DNA of 53,851 bases, filler included, from Bipalium vagum (taxonomy: Eukaryota), in NCBI GenBank assembly GCA_037834085.1. It is 3 parts of 3 records of this genome, joined end to end, with 100 filler letters (N's around TTAATTAATTAA, not from the genome) between each part and the next. Parts side by side here need not be neighbours in the genome. Positions count along the whole stretch, not along the records: positions 1 to 18,657 come from JBBMKC010023131.1; 2 more parts are not named here. One strand, written 5' to 3'. A program made the translations under genes and the position numbers. The stretch's first letter is position 1. Each line of letters starts with the position of its first letter. The notes beneath the pieces were generated by a model. The model made no database searches. It worked only from the letters and a program-made list of their open reading frames with translations, and had not been told where the DNA came from. Below are positions 543 through 44,600 of the stretch, piece after piece.

Positions 543-1093
543 ATGACTGATATAACCGAAGAAAAATTACAAAACATTATTGAAATAGGAAAATCAAAAT
601 ACATTACTTTAAATGGAGAAAATTATTGTATCCAAAAAAATAAAAAAATGAATTAAATAAAAAGGTTGAAGAGAAAAGAGAATGTGGAGTACTTCCATTA
701 ATTCCAATTTTAGGTGCAATATTTGCAGGATTAGGTGCTGCTGATGGTGTAGCCGGAGGAGTTGCAACTGCAGTGCAAAAAGCAAAAGAAGCACAAAACA
801 CGGATTTAGAAAAAAAGAAGTTAGAAATCGAAAATGAAAAACTTAAATCAAAAGAAGTAACATCTGGCGTGGGATTATATTATGACCCACCTAAAGGTGG
901 TGGACTTATGTACGACCCTTATTTTTGAAAGGGGTTAAGAGATTCAATTTTAAATAGTTTAGAATATAGAAATTTAAGTAAATCAGATAGAAAAGAATTA
1001 AAAGAGTTATTACAAAAGATGTCTAAAAATAAAATTAAAATAATTAAGTAAGGGAGTGGTTTATATTTTGACCCTTACGAAAAAAATAAATAA
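543..1093 (+). pseudogene. Polinton/adintovirus membrane-active core protein (cupiennin-like / adenovirus pX-pVI-like), disrupted
   Basis: Manual translation: MTDITEEK...[frameshift ~640]...EKRECGVLPLIPILGAIFAGLGAADGVAGGVATAVQKAKE...SGVGLYYDPPKGGGLMYDPYF*KGL...K*GSGLYFDPYEKNK*. In-frame stops at 926-928 and 1049-1051. An (x)G-VLPLIP amphipathic helix plus GxGLY.P repeats is typical of Polinton proteins encoded next to the protease. Confidence 0.7.
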
Positions 1094-1210
1094 ACGCAGT
1101 GAAGGTGTTAGAGCCGAAGACTCGCTTTCCCAACTCAAAAATACTTCTAACATTTTTTTTCCTAATATAAAAATTTCTAAAAATTATTTTTCCAATTTTA
1201 TTTTAAGAAA

Positions 1211-1705
1211 ATGATAGAAGAAATAATGGAATTCTTTTGTAAATATGGTATAAATACAACTACAAAAATTGATTTAATTAATATTGCAAAAGATTTAGAT
1301 ATGCCTTTAAAACTTTTCATGAAAGATGAGGAAATTACATTAAAACATATTAATTCTGATATTCCTTTAATAATTGAACTTCAAAATTTGAAAGAAGAAG
1401 AAATCCATTGGCTTGGATATTATAGTTGTGTTTATTTTGACTCTTATGGTTTACTGCCTTCAAGTATGTTACTTGAAAGTATAAAAGTATATGAACGAAC
1501 TATAGTATTTAATAAATTAGATTTTCAAAGTGAAATGGATTTGTTGTATAGTGAACAACTAACTTTATATGTTTTATATCAAATTTATAAAGAAGTTCCA
1601 TTTAATAATTATTGTTCGTGTAAGCAAAATGAGAGCTTTATAGAAATTTTAGAAGCATTACAACATGTTACTTTAGAAAAAATTTTAAAAATTAAATTTT
1701 ATTAA
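1211..1705 (+). CDS. Adenain-like (clan CE) cysteine protease homolog, predicted inactive (catalytic Cys replaced by Ser)
   Basis: Intact 164-aa ORF with IHW (His codon 1406-1408), YFDSYG and FQ motifs. The nucleophile position reads YSEQ (AGT at 1550-1552), where the neighbouring paralog reads YCGQ. Confidence 0.8.
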   Translation: MIEEIMEFFCKYGINTTTKIDLINIAKDLDMPLKLFMKDEEITLKHINSDIPLIIELQNLKEEEIHWLGYYSCVYFDSYGLLPSSMLLESIKVYERTIVFNKLDFQSEMDLLYSEQLTLYVLYQIYKEVPFNNYCSCKQNESFIEILEALQHVTLEKILKIKFY

Positions 1706-1709
1706 AAAA

Positions 1710-2201
1710 ATGAGTTGATTTCAGATTGTAAAAACAAATACATTACTGTACATTACTAGAGTTTTTATGTAAATATATAATTAACTCAACTTCAAATTTT
1801 GATTTAATTGATATTGCTGAAGACTTAGAAATGCCCTTAAAAGTTTTCATGAAAGATGTAACAGAAAAAAGAATAAAATCTGAAGTTCCATTAATTATTA
1901 ATTATCAAAATAAAAATCAAAAAGGAATTCATTGGGTTGGTTATTATAATGAATACTATTTTGATTCTTACGGTTTACCACCACTTGAAGATTAAGAAAA
2001 CATGTAAAAGAGTATAATAAAATTGACTATCAATCGAATATTGATATACAATATTGTGGACAATTAACTTTATATGTCTTGTACCGGTTTTTTAATAAAA
2101 AGAAGATTGAGGATAATGAAGTAAAACGTCATGAGAGCTTTGCTCACATTTTTAATGAGTTAAAATATGTTCTTCTAGAAAAATTTAAACTACAAAAATG
2201 A
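1710..2201 (+). pseudogene. Second adenain-like cysteine protease with intact catalytic motifs, frameshifted
   Basis: LLEFLCKY...KGIHWVGYYNEYYFDSYGLPPLED / 1-nt frameshift at ~1992 / RKHVKEYNKIDYQSNIDIQYCGQLTLYVL...KFKLQK*. His codon 1930-1932, Cys codon 2055-2057. The 5' end is also disrupted. About 60% identical to the upstream copy over the N-terminal ~78 aa (hand count). Confidence 0.85.
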
Positions 2202-2548
2202 GTAATAATTTTACATATTTTAAAACTCCCTATTTTTATAATGATTATAAAAATAAAAATAATAAAATAAAAGAAGAAATAACTTTTATTCAAACTGAAT
2301 CAGAAAATAAATTTTTAAATGTTACTGGTGATGCTATGATAGGAGGTATAAATATGAATAATAACAAAATAATAAATGTAACAGATCCAATAAATTATAA
2401 TGACGTTGTAAATTTAAAATATGTGAAACAAATTAGAAAAGATTTATTAAATGAAATTAGTGTAAATAGAATGTTAATTAGAACAAATAATTCTCTTTTA
2501 TTTAATATTAAAAGTCAATTAAAATCATATGAAGAAGAAAAAAAATAA
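2198..2548 (+). CDS. Putative viral fibre/spike-like protein (G-D-x-M-x-G...I-x-N-V...P...D-V-V-N-x-x-Y-V motif plus coiled coil)
   Basis: FLNVTGDAMIGGINMNNNKIINVTDPINYNDVVNLKYV resembles the trimeric neck/stalk motif of phage tail fibres and YadA-type adhesins. Its ATG overlaps the protease stop (ATGA). Confidence 0.55.
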   Translation: MSNNFTYFKTPYFYNDYKNKNNKIKEEITFIQTESENKFLNVTGDAMIGGINMNNNKIINVTDPINYNDVVNLKYVKQIRKDLLNEISVNRMLIRTNNSLLFNIKSQLKSYEEEKK

Positions 2549-5858: not shown

Positions 5859-8800
5859 ATGAACAATATTAATGTAAGTATTTTTCATTATATATTAACA
5901 GGGACATGTCTTCATTTATGTTAGAGATATTCTACTGGATATTCTAATTATTGTGATAATCAAACTCCAGGTCTATATAAAAAATTTACATATCCTCAAA
6001 GTACCTATAGCGATTATTATGATGTATATAATTCCAATCAAAGTCCGTGCGCTTCATCAACAAGCTCATCGAAGGTTTTGATTTTTAGATTGATTCATAG
6101 ATTTTAAAAACTACCGAAATCAGAAAAGAAAGAAAGAAAAACGCACATATTATCATTCAGATGATAATTCTGATGTTGAAGTCAGGAAAAAACCGAGAAA
6201 TGGAATATTAAACGAATCATTAAAACCAGAAATGTGAGTATTTCTTACGTTTATCTAAACATTTTCTCACAATGAATTGTAATTTTACCAAACTATTTGG
6301 TTTCAGTACAGAGGAATTCGATACCATAGAAGATGTGCTCGACACCCGCCTTGGTCATCCTGGTGAAACGGGAGATGAGACGACAATATACAATTCAATT
6401 TACAATACTAATTTGTCAGAAACAACTAAGGGTACTGAACAGCAGTATTTAATTAAGTGGAAAAATTGGAGTTATGTTCACGCTACTTGGGAATCAGAAG
6501 CAAGTCTCAAAGCTCGCGGGCGAGTCGAAGGAAAGAAGAAGCTTGACAAATACATACAGTCTTTCCGAGAGATGGAGCGTTACAAGAATTCTTGCAGCCC
6601 CGACGAACTTGAACGACGATTGTTTGCTGAGGAACAAATTCGCGAAATGAACTATCAGAAAATGCAAATAGACAGAGTTATTCACCACCAGTACGACAAG
6701 GTGGGTAACCTGGAATATTTCATCAAATGGAAATCGTTGGACTACAAATACGTAACTGCTGAATCAGCCGAAAGTGTGGTGGAACCATTGTTCAAAAATG
6801 CAATTATTGAATACAAACACAATTTGCAGAGTGACAAAGTACCAAACAATGATAATCCATATTTGAGGCGTCGACCGGTTTTTACTCCATTATCGAAAAA
6901 TTTCACGTTTGGTTTACCGACAAGTCGTTTATGTTTAAGGGATTATCAGGAGATTGGTGTCAATTGGATGTTGAAACTGTGGACAATTGGACACAATGGT
7001 ATTTTGGCCGATGAAATGGGATTGGGGAAAACAGTCCAAATCGTCGCGTTCATCAGTTCTCTCTTTCGAAGATACGAAATATTCGGGCCATATTTATTGA
7101 TTGTGCCATTGAGTACTATTGACAATTGGAAAAAAGAATTCGAAACTTGGGCTCCAGAAATATATACTGTCGTATATACAGGTGATATTGCATCTCGGGA
7201 AATTATTCGAAAGTATGAATGGTTTCAACCAAATAGCAAGCAATTGAAATTCAATACACTCCTAACAACTTACGAGATCGCAATGAACGACAAATCGTTA
7301 CTAAGTAACATTTACTGGACTTTCCTTGGTGTTGATGAAGCTCATCGGTTAAAAAGTGCTGATTCTAAATTATATAAGACAATTTATCCGTTTCGCACGA
7401 ATTGTCGGTTTCTTATCACCGGAACACCTTTGCAAAACAATATTAAAGAATTGTGGTCTTTGTTACATTTTATAATGCCCACAACGTTTGCGTCTTTTGA
7501 ATTTTTTGAAGAACAATTCGGTAACACAGGAAACGAAACTTTGTGCAATGAAAAACTCGCCAACCTGCGAGAAGCGATCGCTCCATATATTATTCGAAGG
7601 GAGAAAAAGGACGTAGAAAAATCATTGCCAGCAAAATCTGAGCAGATTTTGCGAATCAATATGTCCCATAAACAGAAAGAACTGTATCGATTGATTTTAG
7701 CGAAAAATTTCGATTCCCTTCTTGCAGAAACCAACAAAAGGACCATTTTTAAAAATGTGATCGTTGAACTGAAAAAGTGCTGCAATCACGTTGAATTGAT
7801 CAGCGAGAAATTGAAAACATTGCACACTCCTCTGGAACGACAGGATTATCTCACCAAATCCAGCGGAAAAATGATTGTGCTGGACAAGTTGTTGACCCAC
7901 TTGAAATCGGAAAACCACCGAGTTCTGATTTTCAGTCAAATGGTTCGCATGTTGGACATTTTGGATGATTACTTGTGTCTGAAAGGTTGGGGATTCCAAC
8001 GATTGGATGGCAGTCGTTCGTCTGTGATGCGCAATGAAGCAATAAAGAATTTCAACGCTCCAAATTCAACGGATTTCTGTTTCCTGTTGTCCACTCGTGC
8101 CGGTGGCTTGGGCATCAATTTGACAACGGCTGACACAGTCATCATATTCGACAGCGATTGGAATCCTCATGCTGATATACAGGCAATGGCTCGAGCACAC
8201 AGAATTGGACAGACCAAACAGGTTTCTATATATCGATTTGTGATCAAGAATTCTGTAGAGGAAAAAATCATAGAACGGGCCAAAAGAAAAATGGTTTTGG
8301 ATCATTTGATTATCCAACGAATGGAAGCCAATGGAATCAGCTCGAAGAACACCAAGTCGAAATTGGAAGCCGATGATTTTGAGGCAATTCTGAGATTCAG
8401 TGCTCAAGAAATTTTCAAAGAGTGCGACGACAGTGATGATACAGATTTCAATTTGCAGACCATTCTCAAACAAGCAGAAGTTCGCGACCAAGACACGTCA
8501 AGTAGTGCCACGAACGCTTTTTTATCGTCTTTCAAAGTCATATCATTGGACACGGATAACATGGAAATGCCAGCGGAAATCGCTACAGAAGCTGAAGCCA
8601 AAACGTGGTCAGAGTTGATTCCCAAAAAGTATATCGATACCATAAATAAAAACCGAGGTGACATTAACGCCATTATTGATATGATGCCGAAAAAACAGCA
8701 ACATTTCGAAGCGAACAATGTGAAAAACCATTTGATCAAATCCAATTCCATTCCATTGATTAGTGGACGATTGAACAAAATCGAAACAAGAAAACTGGTG

Positions 8801-11509
8801 ACAACAATTCAAAAGTTTGGCTGTCCTCAGAAGCGAATTGAAAAAATTCAGTCCGAAACCCAATTATTCAAGTTGACTGAAAATCAATTGTGTACCACTA
8901 TCATGGAAATAATCGACGGCTGTCGAAAAGTGGTTGCGGAAAACAATGATTCCGATGAACTAAGTAATTTGACTTATGAATATAATGGCCACGCGATAGC
9001 CGCAAAAACCCTTCTCACAAAAATCGATTCGCTCAATGAATTGCATATGATAATAACCCAATATTCGGAAGAGGAACGGTTCAGTCATCAGTTTATTACC
9101 AAAACCAAACCGACAAGCTGGAACTGCGAATGGACATGCGAAGATGATAATCGATTATTGGTTGGCGTTTTCGAGCACGGAATGTGCAGCTGGAAAGAAA
9201 TTAAATACGATCCAAGATTGAAATTGAAAAACAAAATTCTCAAGTCAGACAAATCAATTCTTCCCCAAGAGAAACATTTGAGTACTCGCGTACACTATCT
9301 TCTCGACGTGTTGACAAAGTGTAAACAGCCAATAAAACTGAAATTTAAGCTCGGTATTAACCTGAAAAAGTCGTCTTCGAACGCTGCCAGTGATATTGAA
9401 ACTGACAGTTACAAAAAAGAATCTGTAAAAGTTGCCAAATCGTTGAGTCCAAAAACGTCTTCAGATACCGAGAGCAGTTTGTCGTCTATATCACATAAAT
9501 CATCGAGTTCAGAATCTCAGATTAATGAATCTGTTGATTTGGACGATTTCAGAGACCATGAATTCACATCTTGTTACGGTACCATGTTCTTGGAAGTATG
9601 GTTTTTTGTTTGATCATCAATTTTTTATTTTTAAATTGGAATGTAATTGATTGGAATTTCCTGATCAAAATTGCTACATTTGATAACACAAACTATTGCT
9701 TTCAATGTGCTAAAATTAAACTTTAAAAATAAAATTTGTAATGATTTTCCAAAGGAAATCAAAAGGTATTTGGATTAGTTCCAAATCAATAAGATTTTGC
9801 TGATGGACCAATGAAAATAGCTTCAACCCACGTTTAATATTTCTGAAGCGTCATTTTATTCATTCAATCAAATAAAAAAACCCCAAAAGGGAAATTTTCT
9901 GTTATGTGAATTTAAATACGCTAAAAGATATTTTTCAGCTATGACCTTTTAAATCGTCTTTTAACATTTGTACCTTTGTTTATACATTTGTAAATTTTTT
10001 TTAACGTAAACTTATTATTTAAATTAAAATTCGTATTATTGATTGTTAAAGCTGTATTCTGGATATTTTGGATATATTTCTTATTAGATCGGAATTGTCC
10101 TCATAGATATTTTAATGAAAGTAGTGAAAAATAATATTTCCAATAATTTAAAAGAATTGTTTTCTTCACCAAAAATCTCTGTACCTTGGTTTCTTGAAAT
10201 GCAACATGTGTTTCCTTGGATTCTTTTTAATTTAATAATTTCTCCATACAAGAAAATCAATAAAAATTGTCATTTTTCGTTGATTTTTAGCATATTATAG
10301 TCAATTAAACATTAGAATGACGTTAGTGTTCTATTATTGTGGTAGAACAATTTCCGTGACGTATTAATTTCGGATACAGATAATGTTTGATTTCTAAATT
10401 GAATACTCTAAATTAAGTCCAAATCAAATATTTATTTTATTTATCAAATCAGTTACAAATTTCCATGTTAGCGTTATTAATGAAAAATAACAGTTTTTGT
10501 TTGGAAAGAAGACAAGTTTCGATTTATTATTGATCACTTTACAATATTATTTCTTTATTATTAATTAGAATTATTTTAATTGTTATTATTGACTTGTTCA
10601 TTTTGTAGTGTAAGTCATATTTGAAAGAATGTCGAAAGGAATTGGCAGCCGTGCAAAAAATTCTCACCAATAATCAGAAATCAGATGAGTATCAATACCT
10701 TGATTATAATATTATTAGAGTGGGCGATCGGATCAAATCAGTTGTGAATGATATCAAATCTGTTCAAAGATCACATTATTTTAGGTAAGGTTTACAAATT
10801 GAAATTTCAATATCTTTACCAAATTAAACTCAAATATTCGATAAAACTTGATTTTAACTTCTTGGAGCAATAGAGAAAAATATTGTATCACCACAACTAT
10901 TTCATTATATTTTTATCGGTTTTTCAAAAAGTATTGATTCATTAAAAAATCTGACAATTTGAATCAAGTGTGGAATAAATTGATAATCAGTATCTCCGTG
11001 CGTTCATAATATTTAAAGAGAAATGGACAGTGAAGTTGGAATGACTATTTTCAGATAATTAAATTGGAAATCTAACAGATGAAACTGTGTTTGTATGCCT
11101 GTTTAGAGGAAGGGAAGCAGTGACAATCGCAAAATCTGAACACTGGAGCAGTTCAAAATTTTCGATTGAACTCTGTGATCATAGAAAAATGCTTTTGCAT
11201 GACCGGCCACGCTCTGCAATCTAGAGAGTTCAGTGCATGTTTTGATTGACAGAAGATTGGAAATACGCAGAGCCTTTATTGTCACTATTATAGATTAAAT
11301 GTTAACACAATTGTGTTTAATTCACTCTTAAAATTATTGATTTATTATTTATTAAACATGTTTTTTAAATAAAACAAAGTATCGATATTATCATATTTCT
11401 TTTTTATTTTAGGTACTTATGGCATTTTGTAAAAATATTCTGTCCAAATTATTCGGCAACGGATCTGTTCAATATGTACAAAAAGGCCGCATCAAAAAAA
11501 GATTATTAA
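5859..11509 (+). CDS. CHD1: Chromodomain-helicase-DNA-binding protein 1/2 (CHD1-type SNF2 remodeler), spliced
   Basis: Exons 6101-6233, 6307-9595, 10609-10784, 11413-11509 (GT-AG, phases consistent). The 5' exons 5859-5873 and 5925-5970 are tentative. Tandem chromodomains (YLIKWKNWSYVHATWE, YFIKWKSL), ILADEMGLGKT, VDEAH, LLSTRAGGLGINL, QAMARAHRIGQ, a SANT-SLIDE-like DNA-binding region (WTCEDDNRLLVGVFEHG) and a C-terminal CHCT/DUF4208 domain (CKSYL...VGDRI...YLWHFV...MYKK). Confidence 0.95.
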
Positions 11510-16353: not shown

Positions 16354-18450
16354 TTAAGGAAACGTCCAACAGTAAATAGTGAAACTGGTATTATCTTTGT
16401 TTGTTCGCCGGGATCCACGTTTTTTACCATCCATGGGGTTTATCTTTGAGCTGTCATTATAATTATTTGAAACATATTCATCATGGTTGTTCAACATTTG
16501 GTTCAGCATATTGATTGATCTTACTGGATTTTGAAATGTCTTTGCGTCCTCATGTCTCATTTGACATTGAATGCATTGATCAAATCTTGTTCTCGACATT
16601 GAATTTGCATTGTTGTGTTCACTACCACGTTTGTATTCGAATTTTATGTCCAATCCACTCAAAAAGTTTTCATTCTGAAATTGTGGAGTTATCGGTTTTA
16701 CCAGATGTGTGCACCCGATATCCCAATTATCTGCAATGAACACATTCTCATATTTCTTCACTAACCTTGCGAGTTTCTTGTTTTTGTCAATCTTAGATGA
16801 AAACGTTCCTCACTGTTTATAATTCTTCAAAATCTAGCTTCAATTGTACACAGGTTGTTTCTTTCATTGTCTTCTTCTTTCATAGTCTTCTACCACTGCA
16901 ACTCAAAACCAAATTTTGAAAAAAGAATAATACCTCCATTCACGTCAGGAATAATTGTATCTGCAACTATGAAACGATTTTTTTCTATTTTTCATATATC
17001 TGTACAGTCGTCATGATGCTCCCTAAGATATCTAATCTGCTATTATTTGCGCACCGAAGATGTTCACCTGTTTGTTCTAATTTGACGTCTCTAAGGGATT
17101 CATAAACTCTTCGGCTCAAGACATTTACTCTCGCTTCCTTATCCAACAAACATTCATATTTTTGGCCATTAATTCTTATAGACATGCCTGGTCTTCCATC
17201 CATTTTGTCAAATGTTATTTCTGATTTCCTTACTCCAATTGCACCAATACCCTGTGTTTTAAAACTTTGCCCTGGACCTTTTTGTCCTCACTAGCTACGG
17301 TTTGGAAATGGTATTCAGACGTCAACACATGGCTCCAACCATCTCCCCATTTGATGGAGCCCGAACGTTTGGGTCTTCATCTTCAATATCTCTACGTTCA
17401 CTCATGTTTTTTCAGTAATCGTCCAAAATCTGGTGTTCCCAAATTTCTTCTCCTAAGCTGTTGATAAATTTTCCATTTCTGCTAACTCCATAAGCTCTTT
17501 CTTTTCTAGCATACCCAACATTTCTTCCTGATTCTGTACAGCAGTATGTTGAGACATGACCAAAACTCCCAATTTGAAACATTTTGTGTTTGGGCAATTT
17601 CTTCGGATGTGACCTATTCTTCCGCATCCATAGCATATCCGTTCTTTTCTTTCTGGGCATAATCTAGCTTTGTGTCCAGCCATATTGCATGCATAGCAAA
17701 TCATTGGTCTTCTTTCTGGAAGAGCTGTTGATGATATATTTCGGTTATTGGTTTAGGTTTTTGTGTTTCTAATTTTTGAATTATTAGCAAATCTTTTATC
17801 CATGACAGCATCCCTGTATGATCTGATTGTGCTTATCTTCTCTTCTTCTCTATGCATTTCGGAAACAACATTAATAGTTTCCTTGATGGTCCGCACGTCT
17901 GATTTCTTCTTTAACCTTTTTGTGAATCGTCCAACTTTGTTACAATTCGACGAGAAGGGATTCCTTATCAAACTTCAGTGTTAATATCTTCTCCACCAAT
18001 TCTTTGGCCTTGTTGAAAAATACTTCGACATCTTCTTCTACTTGAGTAAAATTCACTATTTCTTCAAAAATGGATAGTGATTTATTTGGATGTGCGAAAC
18101 CAAACGAATTTCTTCTTCAAACTTTGAGGCTTTCTCTTATGTGCTAATTTATGATTCTTCTAGGTCTGGATGAATCATCTTCTTAATCCATGTTCTCTGT
18201 CTTTCTTCTTAATTTGCACAATGTCAAAATAGCGATTGCATGATCTGATGAACTTCTCTAAATCACCAGTCCTCTCTGGAATGAATCTTTCCAGTAATGA
18301 TGTAGGTGTGGTCGCCATGATAGGTTTGAGGGGTCTGCAGGATCCACCAATATCTTTAAGCAACAGAGCACAGGATCTACCAACAGTGATCAACCTCAGC
18401 AGACTCAAACCAATGATGACCATTTTTGTGATCTGTGATCCATTAACAAT
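16354..18450 (-). mobile_element. Ty3/gypsy LTR retrotransposon remnant (gag with CCHC knuckles, aspartic protease, RT/RNaseH core deleted)
   Basis: PBS TGGCGACCACAC at 18317-18306; gag MATTPTSLLERF...; CYACNMAGHKARLC and CYGCGRIGHIRRNC knuckles; protease region ECLLDKEARVNVLS (degenerate DTGA); RNaseH tail FEYKRGSEHNNANSMSR. Multiple frameshifts. Confidence 0.9.
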
Positions 18451-18657
18451 ATAATTGTTCTATACATTAACATTGTTTTATTATTGACATTGTGTCATTT
18501 GTTATTCTTTTATAATTATTTAGTTGTTGATAATATTAAATATGTTAAGATCCTAGAGAATGATGGATAAAAAGGATGTCAAAGGTCGGAGCTTAAATGT
18601 CTCTCAGGTCTCAACGGTTGAAGGTTGCGTTTGTGCGTGTTCGATTTTAATTAAAAT

Positions 18658-18830: not shown

Positions 18831-19559
18831 CAAAGTAATAAAATATTTTATATTCACATGTGATTTACTTTTTAAAAAACGGTTTTATTATCTCACAAAA
18901 GCTGAAGAATTAAAATAATTATAATTATAATGAATTAAATAAAAAAATTCAAATAAATCTTCAGTACATCAATTAAAAAGAGACCACAGTTGTGATAAAT
19001 TGATTAAATTATCTCATTAATGATAAAAAAATCATTACTTCACAAAATGTGATATTTTTTTGCGTAAATAAAGACAAATTGTATTGTTTTAAGAAGCACT
19101 CAGCACTGTTTCAGAAGTCATAATAATAAAGTATTTCATCTGGTAATCTTCAACGAATCAAATTCGTTCCAGAAAATCCATTTATTCATTTTTCAGGCAA
19201 AAAGAAATTTAGCCTCTTCCAAAAAAGATAATTATATTTTTCTCTAACCATTTCTCTTAATTATTTCATTGATCTATTTTTGACTATTTTTCGTTTTTCC
19301 TCTTCTTTCATTGGTTCTTTATTTAAAAATATTTCTTTCATCTATTTTTCAATTAATATCAATTTTTTTCTTTTTTCTCTTAATCTTTAGGTTTATCATT
19401 TCTCCCAATCTCGATTCCTTTTTAATTTTATTTTACAGTTTTTTTCAAGCACGGTCAAGTTGTTATCTTTGTCCCCCTGACTATCCAGTCATCATTATAA
19501 AAGAACCCTTCATTGAAATTTTAACAAGTTCAAAATTCAATTAAAGGAGATCCACGAAC

Positions 19560-21768
19560 CTGATGGGGAGATCCTGCGGGAATGAAAATAGCATCACCAC
19601 GAAACTGAACAATGGCGCACCCTTCAACATCATACTCCGCCTTCAATCGATTGAGCATTGTTTGATCCAAATAAAACTGCTGGTCGTGAATGGGATCGTG
19701 GTCGGAACAAATTATTTCACCTTGCTCTGTGATTAAGTCGTAGAGAAAATGTCTTAATTTCGGCACATCCTTCGGTAAAAATATGTGCCACAAAGCTCCC
19801 GGTAATTCCGTTTGCGCTCGTCTGATCACTGTCTCATCAACGATTGCTTCCTTGATACTTTGCATAACGTTATCCTTTTCCACACTCTTCATGTCCTGCG
19901 GCACACCAACATAAAGCATAACGTTAACGGCATCAGCAATGTCCAAATGAAGATTTGTGGTGCCCAGCTGAAAGCGTTTAAAGAATGTTAATATTTCTCA
20001 AACGATTTCCGTTTTATACTTTACACTCCCGAGGCATTCCGTAGGCATTGTACAATTTCGGTCCCAGATCAGGTCTGACGAAAAAATCCGGCAAATGTGC
20101 TGCCAAATTGAATTCTCCTTGTCGACTAGTGTAGGGTTTGATTGGTAAATTGTTGAGAATGTCTTTACATCGTTGGGGTAAAATTTCGTTGAAATCGTCA
20201 GAGGGTGGCCAGTCTTTAAGTTTGAGGCAGGCGGGCCTCGACCCATTTGGAGTAGATGATGAGATTCGTTCTTTATTGATAAAATCATGTGAATTTTTCG
20301 TTTCACAAAGAGAAGAAAAAAATCAATAACTTACTTGCAACACACTCAAAGCCTTCCCAGAATGCCTTCATTGATCCTTTTGGAACTGGAAGTTCCGTTT
20401 CACAATCCACAAGTGTAACTGGTTCAGAAGCTTCGAAGTCTTCAAGAAACTTTTCTGGTGTCCATAATGTTAAATCCATACTTTTGTGACAACCCGAAAC
20501 TATGACAGGGTGTGCCAACAGTAATTCTCTCTGAAAACAATACCTTACGCTGAGCTCTTTTCGTTAAATTTCATAGAATCATTGGAAAATGAGATAAGAT
20601 GCAACCAATATTCTTTTCGTTTATACTAGACACTTGCAATAATCCGAGCTTTATTGATTATTTTGAATGAAAGCAGAAATGGACACAATTTTTGTATAGC
20701 CTTGGTATTAATTGTTATCTAGTCATTTTGAGTAATAATTTTTAATAGTGAACGCATCATTATTTTCCTTAGAATTATAAGGCATCAGACCTCTACAAGA
20801 AAAAAACAAGCACCGCCCTGACTAGTACAGATCTTCACAAAAACGTTGGATCACAATAAAATTAAACCTTATAATATATTGAATGGCCGAAAACATGTGA
20901 TGTGGTATCGGGAGGGTGAAGCAATATTTGTTTAATGGTTTAATTAGATATCAAGTCTCGCTCTGACAAACCTTCATTCAATAAGCTGATGACATCTTTA
21001 CAGAAATAAAAAAAGATCGACATAATAAGCAGTTACCAGGTTCCTTACCCAATAGATAAAACGTGGACCCCAAAATCTGTTTTAAAGCAAAGGCATGATT
21101 TTCATTTTTCCAAAGGACCTTTTTCTTCACAGAATTGATTACGGCTTATATACTTTAAAAAGAATTATTCAGATTCCTTTCTTAATTGTTTGGAATTGGT
21201 GTCATTTGGATATCACACTAATTATTCTTTGCACAGTTGGGATTTTATCAACATGATAACATTGAGTTGTTTCCAATCCACAATTCTCCACAAATCGGAA
21301 TTGTTAGTCAAATTTAACTATTTGCAAATTAAATGTTTTTTAATTTATTGATTTAATTTAATTATAAAATTTAATTATTTAATTATTGATTTAATTAAAA
21401 TTCTCTATTATAATCGATATTATATAAATGTGGTAAATAAAAGATTTGTATGACATTAAAATTCAACATTGAAACTGTGCAGCGCAACAGTATGCCAACG
21501 ATAAAAGAAAGAGGAATTCTATACAGAGGACTTCATTGAGTTTTCAAGGTTTAAGACAATGCAGGCTTGTTAAGAATAAAACACACGTGTCAGTGACCCC
21601 GTGAATTAGAATAATTCTGATTAATTAAACAATTTCTGCAAAAAATTATTTAATTTAAATATTACCACAACTAAAAATTATTTTAATTTTTCTATATTAC
21701 AAAAAATAATAATATTCAACCTCGATGAATATCAAATGGAATTATACTAAACAAATTAGAGAAAAACC

Positions 21769-21825
<57 letters not shown>

Positions 21826-24800
21826 TAACCTGAAAAATTTGTAGATTTTCGTGATCGTTAGCATTGTGGAGTCGAATTATTTTAAAATGCGGTGATACTG
21901 TGACCCAGGAGAAAAGGTTTTCAGAATTTGAATCTTTCAGTGTAGAATCCGAAATCTGTCCATTGACTGTCGAAGCCAGTCTTGGAACTGGTTGTGATAT
22001 TAATGAACCAGCACTGGATTCTACTTTTCTATCAAATTCATTAAAATGAATAGAGCCTTTATTTTCTCCATTGACCCCTTCTTTCAGGACTAAATCAGCC
22101 AACAAATGAAGATCATTTTCACAACTGAAATCGTAAAATAATTCATAATCACTTCCGTGAAGTAGAGAGAAAGGTTTTTTCGTTTCTGTCTGTTATTTTA
22201 TTTAAGTTAACATGATTCGTCAGCGAAAACGACCAAGGTTCACTATGATTATTATTAATTTTCGTAAAAGAGCATTTCAGGAACTCTTATTTGAATATAA
22301 ATACATATATAAATAGATACAGATGATTCCTGGAATTTTGCTGTAAAAAAATTAATATTTAAGTGCTAAGTTTTGAGTCAGTTCTGTACCAGAAATTTTA
22401 ATGTCCTCAGGTGTTTTCATTAGTAAAAGTCAAGTAAACGGATGGCTAAGTTGTTTCTGAAGGAAAATGAAAATTTGAATGATGATGCATTCGGAAAACA
22501 GTCTGGACATCGAAGATCAGCCATACCAAGTTCTAGACAATGATAACTTCAAATATACAAGAAGATGACATATTTTGACCGAATCTAACGAAAACATGAT
22601 AAGATTGAATTTAGTGCTTGGAATACTATAGGAATATAATCAGGGTACAATTCTAAAACCAAGCGACGTGTTCACTACAATTTATTTGGCAATATAATAA
22701 TTCTTGGCTTAATAAAATGTTGCCTTTTGCAATATATATTGATATTTTGAATTGATATATTATTTAAACATAAATTGTAATCAATAAAGATTTTAATCAA
22801 TGATGTTTATTTTTTAATTGATTCCAAGAATGTATACAATATTCAAATCGAATTTTTAATAGCATCTTTGTAAAATCTTAACTTTTAAATCCAATAGAAA
22901 AATATAAACATAAATTAAATATAAAAAGTACCCCAAAGAATTAGATTCAAAGCCTGCCACACTATCTGGAGTCAGTTCGTCGAGTTTTGACGAGAGCTCT
23001 TCAGATTTGGGTTTTGAGAAGCAATTGCATCTGAGTTTCAAATTAAACAGTTTCGCTACAGTATGCATGCGATTTTGTAATTCACTTATTACTTTGATGG
23101 GGATCAGTTCGACTTTTAACAATTGATCCGGACTATGAGGTTGACGATTTGATGTGCAAACCGCCCATGGATGATCACAGGGACTTTGGCGACTTCTACT
23201 AGCCCCGCGAGTATTTTGGTGAATGGATTCTAAAGCAGTAAAATGGGGTGTTGTCAATTGATTACCATTTACTGATTATTTTTAACATTTTTGAAACTTG
23301 GAGAATATTTTTTAAAAATTTTCACTTTAATTTTATATTGATCTAAAGTCATTTAAAACAGGAAACAATGAAAGTTCCATACCCCCATGACTTTCAAATC
23401 CATTTTTTGTAAGAGAAAATTATTTATTTATTGATCTTTGATAAAAATTTGGTTTTATTTATCAATTTTATTAATAGTTTTACATATGAAAATTGTTTCC
23501 TTTTCGGATTGACAATGTCGTTACAGTGGGTCCCGTTCGTTTTCATTAGCATATTTTCAAGCTTAAAATAATCAGCAATGAAAAGAGTGATGACAATTGC
23601 AAGACATTTACGCACTTGATGCGCAGCCTCCCTCCTTTCCATTAAAATTATTGATTAATTACTAATTAAAAATTCCTGAGTGATAGACACGGGCTATTGC
23701 AAATCATTAATTATTAATGATTTGTTACCATAATATTACCAATTTTATGTTATTAATATTATTACATAAACTTAAAATATTCACTTGAAGAAAAGGTAAT
23801 CTATCGAAAATATTAATAATAATAATAATAATAATTAATAATAATATAGTAATAATTGAATAAAACTAAATTAAAACAGAAACTCTTTCAAATGTTTTAC
23901 ATTTATTCCATATAAATATATCTTTGTTTTAATGTATTACATTAATCGTTAATATTTTTAAAAGATTCAATTATCAAATTTTAATGACTGAGCAGCTATC
24001 GTATCAACCTATAGAAGGTTACACAGGAATATGTTTGTAATATGAGAGATGTTTGTCTTTTTCGTTGAAAAAAATAAAACAAGTAAGGTTGGAACCAGAC
24101 TTCTAAAATGTAGAAACTTCACCAAATAAAAGCCACTCGTTAATTTTGATTTTCCCTTTCTTTATTTTTTGTGAAATCCACAGTTTAATCCAAAACTTTG
24201 CTTGCTATGTATTTTTGCCGTGCCCATTAATTCCAATTTACAGGTGACGTTGTGTACAACCCATATAAAATGATCACACCCATAACCTTGGAATTTGAAA
24301 ACGTTATTAACTTGCATTATTTTGAGAGTCGGGTTTTTGATTTGTAAAGAATTCTTCGGTTTTGTGGTTACTGAGATTATCATTAGGTCTGCCTTGTTCA
24401 TTTATGGTCTATAGGGTCATGTTTCGGAGCCTTTGGAATCTGTTTGAATAGGAATCCTAATTATGTTCTTGTATTCTTTTCTTTATCTTTCTCTACCTCT
24501 AGGATTGTAAATTACTCATCATAAACAACTTATCCATTTTTAATTGTCTGTTTTACTATTCCTTACTGCAAATAACCAAACCTTTTAAACTTTTATAATT
24601 TCTTCCAATTCTACTTAGTCTGAGATGTTAATCTTTCGATGTGTCTTTTCGATTTTGCACACTCTTACCAGTAATCCGAATTATTGGTTCCGCTCGTACT
24701 AAAACAATGACCATTGTGATGAGTCTTCAAGTAGTGGAGCAAAACATGTTCATGACCCAAAATATGTTCAGTAACCATTCCAATCAGTTGATGAACACCT

Positions 24801-24976
24801 AACACTGCAAATTCCAGTTCCCAATGATAGAAAGATTCAACACTAAGTTTTCTCTTATACAGTTTGCATATTTCTCTTCACACTAACTATTATGTTATGT
24901 ACATAATATATAAAGTATAATGATAATTTTAATTATTATTATCGACTGATATTATTATTATCGATTATTATTATTA

Positions 24977-25046
<70 letters not shown>

Positions 25047-41600: not shown

Positions 41601-44600
41601 TTCTAAGACACATACATTTAAAAATTTTGAAAACACAAACAATTTCAATACACAATATTTATTTACAGGAACTGTTGAAAATGACCTCTTCAGCTAATAT
41701 GCAGGAATCCAAACTTCTCATTGGATCCCGCATTCTTTCGAAAACACCAGGAAGGTTTCTTATGGAATTGCATCCATTGACTATCCGATTCCTTAAATTA
41801 TCTTCATTTTCGACTAGCGTCTTATAAACTAACGACTTTAAATGGCCCCATAAAAAATAATCGTTGGGGTTTAAGTCTTGAGACTGGGTATACCATGAAT
41901 AAAGTCCGCCTATACCAATTCAGCGATCATGATATATTGCATTTAGTGACCCACAGACAACTCCACTAAAATTCACCGGCGCTCTGTCATACATAAACCA
42001 CATGACTTTTCTCATTCCCAATGGTATATCCTCAAGCAAGTTAGGTAACATATCATCCAAAAATTAAATTGATTAAGCAATTTGTATAGGGAAAAACAAA
42101 AAAATCCATATAAAAGAAATGTATTCAGTTTTAAGACAGGCTCTTAAAATTTCATTAAAATGTACGTGTATCTTGATTTACTTGTTAAACACCAGATAAA
42201 ATGGATAATAATTTTAAAATTACAGAGTTTAGAATTATTTCACAATAGCTGAGAAAAGATTTCAAGGTCGGGACAGCTTTCGGTGAAAAAATATATTTAA
42301 GTTAAAATGAAGAGAATAACAATAATTTTAATATTAGTCTGCTAATGAAAAATGTCTCATTGTAATATCTTTAATTATAACAATCATAATCAAAATTACT
42401 TAAATCAATAAAATTAATAATTCAGACGATCCACATATTACCGAGAGAATATTTAGAGCTGTACGTATGTTTTTAATAATTTTCTTGAAAAATCAATAAA
42501 TAATATCTGCCTTCGTTTTATATAAAGAAATAATCTTCTTTTTTTCAAATATATTTGTAACAAATAAACTACTACTTATTCAACATTGATCTAAGAAACA
42601 GAATTTAAACACTGAATGTAATATTCAGAAGATAAGATCTGTATGTAATATTGATTGAATAACTTCTATAAACTGTTTCCATAAAAAAAGCGATTTATCA
42701 TTAATAAATAAAAAAACACCAATGATTACTTCGAATCTTTGATTGATGAAATTGATCGTATCCTTTGCTAAATATACAAAAGATTTAGCCAAACAAGGGT
42801 TTGGTAGATCGTATGAGACACTCAATGCACTACTCTTACGGCGAATTGATGATCTAAATAATTCATTTCATAATATTTTCTTTAGGAAAAAGTCCTTACC
42901 TGTGAGTTAAATCTTGAATATTTATACTCACTTTTGATTTACGATAGGAAAGGTTACTTATTTCAGACCACACGTAGCTCTGTCGAGAAAATACACTTAA
43001 ATCACGATATTTTTAAGATATTAATAAAACGATGATTTATTTGTTTTATTGAATTTATCTCCATCTCATTGGCTCCTATCATTATGGAAACTTAAAATTT
43101 TCAAGTTTATTATATAATGAAATTTCATTTAATTTCACAGCTCTTTATAAAACTTGTCTGATCAATAATTAAATAACATTATTAACATTATTAAATCAGT
43201 CAGAATTTAAGATTTTTCCCAACATTTTCACTCATCTATGATGGAAAATTTTTATTAATAATGTGTATAGATCTCTATTGTTTTCTGGCAGCTTCACATA
43301 ATACAATGAGTATGAAAGTAAATTTTTCTACTTCTAAAATATTATTTCTTAGCAGACAAATATTATTTCTATTTCAGAAGAATAGATTTAGTAAGCAATT
43401 TTATACAACTTGATGACATGATGGACACAATACTAATATAATAATGAAGAATGTTTAATATTTTACTTTTAATCCCACTGATATCTGATTTTTTGTACTT
43501 AGGATAATAAATTAAATAATAAATCAAAATCCACAATTCTTGTTGCAAAGTCTTATTTAATTTTTATTCGAGGTAGAGATTTTTTTATCACTTAAATATT
43601 ATCATTGACTATCACTTAATGTTTTATAATTTAAAATTTAAGTCTTAACTTTTTGAAATTTGAAACTGTGCTGATAAATAAATGTAATACACATTTTATA
43701 TTATGGCCCGGAAAAATATTAAAGTTATAATCAAAATAAATCGCTTAATTATAAAATAATTAAATAATATAGGAAAATTTTATTACTGTTTTACTTCAAT
43801 TATTTTCAAAGAAATATAATTCAAAAGGAAAGATAATTATGGGAAATAAAATGATTTTATTCATTTAATAAATTTACACCAATCGGATTAGTTCTTTTTT
43901 CGGCATAAATTACGCTAACATTAAACTAGGAAATTGAAAAAAGATTTTGATACTTTTTGACATAACCTCAAAATCAAGAACATAAATTAATTGACATAAT
44001 TTCTTAAAAAAAATAAAAATTTTTTGATTTATTATACATAATTTTTATTTACTTTGCATTAATAATTATTATAATTTTTCAGGAAATTCTTACACTTTAA
44101 AAAAACCAATTTGTAATATTACCCAATACTCTAGAGTGTTTCGTTAAATTAATTATTTACTTTAACTTATCGACAAGAGAATATTATAAGTAAAATATCT
44201 TTATCTATATCTAAATTATTTTAAAGATATTATAATTGATATTTATGAATTAATTTAATAACGTTTCATAATTTTTGTTAATATAAATATCGACACTTAA
44301 TGTAGATTATTATGTAGATGATGATGATTTCATGCCGAAAAATAGGAACTACATGACAGTAAGTAGATCACGATTTTACACAAAACGAAAAAAAATTTAA
44401 ATGACTAAATAAATAATATTAACAATAATTACAATAATAATTATCTAGGATTTCAGTAGTACAAAAGAAGTATGTGATTTTATACTCAAATCATAATTAT
44501 TTATTCAATTTTTTAAAAATGTTTACATGAATATGTTTTGCTAACCAGTACAATTAAAACTGTAACTGTCAAACTAAAAGACGATGAAAAAAACAAGATG

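Follow-up and report, generated by a model that had tools for sequence, protein, structure and literature searches.

Mavericks (Polintons) and their relatives carry an adenovirus-like protease as a core gene, with one per element (PMC8097293, PMC8502044, PMC11161782), and one such protease also stands among the core genes in further accounts (PMC9683012, 10.1101/2023.08.22.554363, 10.1101/2022.07.12.499685). The literature excerpts available to us present the maturation protease as a core gene that occurs once and is strongly conserved in Mavericks, adenoviruses and related viruses, and the Maverick protease is described as under strong purifying selection (PMC8097293). A locus in Bipalium vagum raises the question of why two such genes should stand in tandem, and why the one that is still open has lost its catalytic Cys. 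We analyzed the 53,851-nucleotide stretch that holds the locus (the window, along which all positions count); it is AT-rich eukaryotic DNA containing host genes and decayed transposons. We see about an even chance that selection in the active element maintained the open gene, copy 1, as a pseudo-protease, as judged from the sequence of the single decayed copy known.

Two adenain-type genes in a virion module

Copy 1 (1211..1705, + strand) is an open adenain-fold gene without the catalytic Cys, a candidate pseudo-protease of 164 aa that starts at ATG 1211 and is uninterrupted, as the first-pass annotation had reported. It retains His 1406, Asp 1439 and Gln 1526, and its active-site set (His, acid and Cys triad plus oxyanion Gln) is incomplete because Ser occupies the Cys column. 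The alignment places its retained catalytic residues and four departures from family-invariant residues within 1376..1555 (+), the departures being Glu 1376-1378, Glu 1400-1402, Ser 1550-1552 and Glu 1553-1555. All three motif changes described in the first-pass annotation are present (Glu 1400-1402, Leu 1454-1456 and Ser-Glu 1550-1555); Glu 1376-1378, which replaces the Asn of the adenain "IVN" motif, is a fourth invariant-site change beyond those motifs. With 26 acidic and 15 basic residues, copy 1 has the most acidic balance of ten proteins compared, slightly past P0005. Its indels are all in frame. Six extra residues stem from an old, diverged in-frame 18-nt tandem duplication at 1475..1510 (+), whose halves have since diverged at 6/18 bases; the 12/18 matches compare with a background mean of 6.3, a count that just one of the 317 in-frame windows attains.

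Copy 2 (1710..2201, +), read by translation and alignment, is an adenain gene with the full catalytic set, at His 1930, Asp 1963, Gln 2031 and Cys 2055, as had been claimed for it, with the codons split across two frames (frame 1 over 1732-1995, then frame 3 over 1989-2201). The frameshift and damaged 5' end ascribed to it are both there, and the lesions number three rather than one: a stop at 1716 in frame with ATG 1710, a frame-shifting tandem duplication at about 1739-1757 and a frameshift within 1984-2000, between which positions copy 2 has one base fewer than five intact relatives. DNA alignment gave no support for deriving its 5' end from the start of the downstream gene. Copy 2 keeps 11/11 family-invariant sites, defined as columns in which at least 90% of 154 homologs agree, and it matches the relative P0001 at 97/127 residues, with conservative changes.

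Upstream of the pair, translation of 543..1093 (+) reveals a broken pX-like or core-precursor gene with Gly-x-Gly-Leu repeats, a candidate protease substrate, whose reading frame changes once near 645 and is interrupted by stops at 926 and 1049. Its atlas matches (0.90-0.91, one cluster being 20% Adeno_PX) fall below the recognition threshold and serve as a lead only. At a related locus, L068, a pX-like homolog lies immediately upstream of the protease (E 8e-10). Motifs of the pX-like kind are also fused to a protease in P0062, with a pairwise E of only 0.08. P0062 is a 434-aa natural protein, a single NCBI record, that combines an intact adenain-type protease with a pX-like Gly-x-Gly-Leu part; it probably joins the enzyme and its substrate in one chain and could be a gene-calling artefact. 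A candidate TATA-like hexamer (1166..1171, +) occupies the short gap 5' of copy 1. Downstream lies a gene with a short repeat (2198..2548, +) whose ATG overlaps the copy 2 stop; it matched nothing above the Pfam cutoff, and we take it to be "fibre-like". By tblastn, its repeat occurs near the protease in 5/121 related loci (best E 4e-5, in L042).

From the pX-like gene upstream, the adenain pair and the occurrence of the downstream-gene repeat near related proteases, we conclude that the tandem pair is part of the virion module of a Maverick/adintovirus-type element. An adenovirus-like protease with virion-gene neighbors is one feature of a Polinton/Maverick, and it is what we find here, with weak support for the pX-like neighbor. 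A tblastn search of the window with the open reading frames (ORFs) of 121 related loci recovered no other Polinton/Maverick genes; the fragment may extend past the left end. Polymerase, integrase and capsid genes and termini lie outside the view of the window, so the element is left without formal placement. The search for a terminal inverted repeat or target-site duplication returned one distant motif match at chance level, both element ends being outside the view.

Copy 1 has a predicted adenain fold

Copy 1 alone had no Pfam match and no PDB sequence match, and its assignment to adenain therefore comes from the family profile and the fold. Homologs were collected by a profile search (150 listed of 720 representatives) and a second profile search (120 listed of 550), and four close relatives are at 50 to 56% identity. 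A 99-row family profile matched the adenovirus protease 1AVP (E 1.9e-8) in an alignment that covers the Asn, Gly-x-His-Trp, Gln and Cys-Gly motifs, and Peptidase_C5 (PF00770) was matched by 31/99 family members, copy 1 alone not being among those matched.

The predicted model of copy 1 had a pLDDT of 87.6, a confidence that reflects the 99-row alignment behind it and says nothing about the stability of copy 1. A Foldseek search with this model placed adenain in the top three rows (E 1e-3 to 2e-3, none below 0.001; probability 1.00). Structural alignment to adenain gave Z scores of 10.0 to 10.1 and an rmsd of 3.1 to 4.2 over 129 to 137 aligned residues, tied with other clan CE enzymes. The clan CE/adenain fold that had been proposed at the outset withstood Foldseek, structure alignment (Z of about 10) and the profile, and copy 1 is predicted to belong to the adenain family with a clan CE fold.

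The copies are old sisters that diverged unequally

The two copies share 47/77 aligned residues (61%) in the N-terminal part, in agreement with the roughly 60% first described for these adjacent homologs, and 25/57 in the C-terminal part; at the DNA level they are 73% identical over 226 nt (E 7e-33). The description of their differences as mostly conservative was overstated, since of the 30 N-terminal differences 15 have a BLOSUM62 score above 0 and 22 a score of at least 0. A C-terminal tail is common to both (1629..1684 in copy 1 and 2131-2186 in copy 2, +; 71% over 56 nt). The score between these tails is 48, the best of 260 homolog tails reached 35, and 0/2000 shuffles reached 48. This common tail argues that the two are sister copies. 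In the tree, both nest among the close relatives, but the topology does not settle whether they are sisters (p-AU 0.41).

Pairwise omega, an average over both branches, was 0.16 to 0.27 by codon ML, with a dS of 1.25 to 1.68; an omega of 1, which would have pointed to neutrality, was rejected by the LRT (p<1e-4). The NG86 estimates were a dS of 0.74 and an omega of 0.45 (bootstrap 0.25 to 0.75). A hand split with dS equal and dN divided 30:8, which is arithmetic rather than a branch model, assigns copy 1 an omega of about 0.25 to 0.3 (ML core) or 0.7 (NG86) and copy 2 an omega of about 0.07 or 0.2. The pairwise dS and omega are beyond the reach of decay after integration, so the pair diverged in an active lineage; this bears out the earlier proposal of an old duplication that evolved under selection before decay.

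Most of the change fell on copy 1. When 112 columns were polarized against eight relatives, 30 changes were assigned to copy 1, 8 to copy 2 and 10 were ambiguous; of 75 columns that do not vary among the four closest relatives, 22 are altered in copy 1 and 5 in copy 2 (p 0.0005), and the tree branches measure 1.11 for copy 1 versus 0.32 for copy 2. Four of the 11 invariant sites changed in copy 1 (Asn, Gly, Cys and Gly) and 0/11 in copy 2 (Fisher p 0.09). The probability of 4/11 at copy 2's rate is 0.0035 to 0.0045, and the invariant sites of copy 1 were not spared relative to other conserved sites (4/11 versus 18/64, p 0.72). Among homologs, Cys is present in 230/230 rows that reach its column (262 aligned rows, 260 homologs), and at seven key sites none of 227 complete rows departs more than twice, whereas copy 1 departs four times, both counts being inflated because homolog searches favor typical members. 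The other changed sites hold Asn in 252/258, Gly in 254/257 and Gly in 226/230 homologs. Since four changes are improbable at copy 2's rate and invariant sites were unspared, most of the copy 1 branch seems to have passed without catalytic constraint. The comparison supports an early loss of this constraint on copy 1, before the decay of the element.

Selection on copy 1 and alternative explanations

We compared copy 1 with a neutral model of nucleotide change, adjusted to match the amino-acid changes it carries. The model expects 3.3 to 7.0 stops in copy 1, and none is present (P of none, 0.0007 to 0.033). In a control family of 49 decaying copies, 18 stops accompany 158 private missense changes, near the modeled 0.12 to 0.14. 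The 34 hydrophobic columns include a single change to a polar residue in copy 1, at the Cys, against a neutral expectation of 1.8 to 4.0; alone, this test is weak (P 0.014 to 0.16). The mean BLOSUM score of copy 1's changes is 0.17 (sd 1.66, n=30), compared with -0.4 to -0.57 under neutrality and 1.12 for copy 2. At columns conserved in near relatives, the 24 copy 1 departures average -0.17, a value that neutral single-base change would also give (-0.14 to -0.27). The stop, core and BLOSUM statistics favor purifying selection on copy 1 after its loss of catalysis, and the neutral-looking -0.17 is partly against it.

Selection may instead have acted on copy 1 only as a passage. A jobless copy 1 could have been kept open and roughly foldable because copy 2 depends on ribosomes or transcript passing through, whether by translational coupling, avoidance of nonsense decay or avoidance of misfolded product. 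The layout fits such dependence: the copy 2 ATG (1710) lies four bases past the copy 1 stop (1703-1705), the next gene's ATG overlaps the copy 2 stop, and the one TATA-like hexamer sought and found precedes copy 1. The unspared invariant sites and the neutral spectrum of departures at conserved columns fit as well. However, selection on the frame alone fails to predict the kept hydrophobic core or a BLOSUM mean of 0.17 versus -0.4 to -0.57, and over a dS of about 1 one would expect a compact element to have lost such a copy by deletion. We regard this explanation as unlikely, if far from negligible.

Luck is the heart of another account, in which both genes worked through most of their history and copy 1 only afterwards turned into a neutral pseudogene, one that happened to stay unbroken. 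The most cautious, excess-only stop estimate leaves room for it (P of no stop, 0.05 to 0.07), several changes are of the Gly-to-Glu and Pro-to-Leu kinds that AT-biased drift would favor, and no such pair occurs at any related locus (0/121, comprising 41 viral loci and the best 80 of 393 metagenome loci). The modeled P of no stop speaks against it, as do the indels, which in copy 1 are in frame with one of them old, whereas the three counted indel lesions of the neighbors are all frame-shifting. The copy 1 side also shows no net GC loss (11 versus 9). We consider late neutrality improbable.

Copy 1 could also have been an active protease of altered specificity until integration, its Ser being a later decay mutation. 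His, Asp and Gln are kept, and Cys to Ser takes one base change, but three more invariant residues of near-universal occurrence are replaced (the Asn and the two Gly above), and four changes are hardly expected at copy 2's rate (P 0.0035 to 0.0045), so there is little chance that this is correct.

Co-option of copy 1 by the host after integration, raised in the first-pass annotation, is very improbable and was left unsupported: copy 1 is the sole unbroken full gene beside neighbors in which a hand count finds about 6 lesions over 1040 nt, but the probability of no lesion in 495 nt is 0.058 to 0.118 across assumed rates before any correction for post hoc choice, 2198-2548 and 644-925 are likewise unbroken, and the closeness of copy 2 to P0001 indicates a decay phase that is short against the far larger excess divergence of copy 1, most of which thus predates decay and leaves co-option unneeded.

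A possible role for the retained copy

For a pseudo-protease held by selection, the following history would account for the observations. In an ancestral active Maverick/Polinton-type element, the maturation protease gene was duplicated in tandem, and copy 2 stayed under catalytic constraint. By analogy with adenain biology, copy 2 most likely continued to process virion precursors, the upstream pX-like protein for example, at Gly-rich sites. Sequence statistics suggest that catalytic constraint on copy 1 was lost early and that this copy diverged about 4 times faster while remaining open and foldable. The integrated copy would have decayed later, copy 1 having so far escaped a stop or frameshift by chance.

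Adenain activation needs a basic peptide and DNA. The changed positions of copy 1, we presume, line the channel for the Gly-rich site. These cleft-lining residues have been replaced, three of four by Glu, which makes a simple substrate trap less likely. Its cleft so remodeled and acidic, copy 1 might instead have bound basic core precursors or the protease's activating partners without catalysis, which on speculative grounds is the likelier role; such binding could have damped or timed maturation. Nothing here points to a ubiquitin or SUMO decoy role, itself a speculative idea.

Comparison with known systems

The Polinton/Maverick (adintovirus) PRO resembles this pair in fold, in the His-Asp-Gln-Cys order and in having a pX-like gene upstream, as at L068. 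It differs in being a single gene, whereas here two stand in tandem, one without its nucleophile, and 0/121 related loci (metagenome loci being the best 80 of 393) are paired. In the literature available to us, we found no report of a Polinton maturation protease that is duplicated or inactive, and the accounts of the core genes cited at the outset make no mention, in the passages available, of a second or inactive protease. Maverick particles are so far unobserved according to the passages available (PMC8097293, 10.1101/2023.08.22.554363).

In vaccinia, too, a working viral enzyme, the B1 kinase, has an inactive paralog, the B12 pseudokinase, whose origin is attributed to duplication (PMC7605207; see also PMC6395007). 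Unlike the present pair, these are kinases, and in the excerpts available B12 has a demonstrated function and is itself conserved across a genus, whereas ours is one decayed copy known from sequence. The available passages on viral pseudoenzymes name a dismutase, a kinase and an amidotransferase, and no protease (PMC7605207). The inactivated vOTU of adenovirid and bidnavirid polymerases, from the same phylum, is a cysteine-protease domain retained without catalysis and proposed, in the text available, to be structural (PMC11161782); it differs in belonging to the OTU family and in being internal to a polymerase, whereas copy 1 is a stand-alone paralog of a maturation protease. Engineered Cys-to-Ser SENP traps, SUMO-bound in the entries as described (PDB 2g4d, 5aek), are clan CE proteins that, like copy 1, have Ser at the nucleophile position. 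The traps keep the cleft intact, but copy 1 has Glu at two conserved glycines and at the conserved Asn, so that a trapping role is not to be taken for granted.

If copy 1 was retained as proposed, a dead twin would represent an extra layer of maturation control or reuse of the protease as a binding module. The two copies would then form a natural pair for asking what the adenain fold binds besides what it cuts.

Related loci and a His-less group

We examined 121 related loci, all distant relatives (41 viral and the best 80 of 393 metagenome loci), and found a second protease in 0/121, of which 81 had at least 600 nt on both sides. Where two profile matches fell at one locus, they proved to be a single gene interrupted by a stop (8/80 metagenome loci, of the best 80 of 393) or two parts of one gene (3/41 viral loci). 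One decaying multi-copy protease family was seen, L055 with 49 related metagenome loci, in which 17/49 copies have a stop or frame change; it served as the neutral-decay control above.

Protein searches returned no copy-1-type sequence, including among the 150 listed of 720 and the 120 listed of 550, and a pattern scan of viral and metagenome contigs yielded no close relatives. A short-fragment search found one ordinary family member, P0155. A word search of sequencing runs found 2 that contain some of the words (fractions of 0.30 and 0.11), no RNA run being among them; this result bears neither way.

Six relatives (P0026, P0261, P0033, P0045, P0056 and P0146; alignment A7) have His-to-Asp and Asp-to-Ser changes and keep Gln and Cys-Gly. 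Five representatives share 43 to 55% mutual identity, and the group as one clade has a support of only 51%; a pattern scan of viral contigs recovered no gene context for it. From its sequences, this set is either an old pseudo-protease subfamily or one with a rearranged active site. The presence of this group in the same family suggests that triad-deficient members can persist, and it makes the pseudo-protease question testable beyond one decayed locus. We tentatively raise the possibility, which we hold to be somewhat doubtful, that Maverick/Polinton viruses turned the maturation protease into a dedicated noncatalytic partner more than once, to regulate maturation or bind host ubiquitin-like proteins. 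Two routes would then have been taken, one by Cys loss and an acidic cleft beside an active twin, and the other by His and Asp loss in an old subfamily; such pseudo-proteases would form a class of viral pseudoenzyme that we did not find described in the accessible literature.

Other genes in the window

Several other features were recorded in the window. A fragment at 41662-41919 (-) is without a Pfam match and resembles what we take to be a Tc1/mariner transposase motif. Decayed LTR-retrotransposon-like pieces with a zinc knuckle, presumably Gypsy-like, lie at 16357-18459 (-), and a fragmented JmjC-domain gene that includes a Cys-rich finger, which we assume to be KDM3-like, at 19533-26387 (-). 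A CHD1-like chromatin remodeler at 6224-9613 (+) is a single intronless frame of 1129 codons, and another host gene is in many pieces. An alternative genetic code was ruled out for the lesions of the element, since the stops are both TGA and TAA, frameshifts are present and the 1129-codon host gene is open under the standard code. Assembly error was likewise ruled out as their main cause: the lesions include in-frame stops, and the 1129-codon host frame is unbroken over 8 homopolymers of at least 6.
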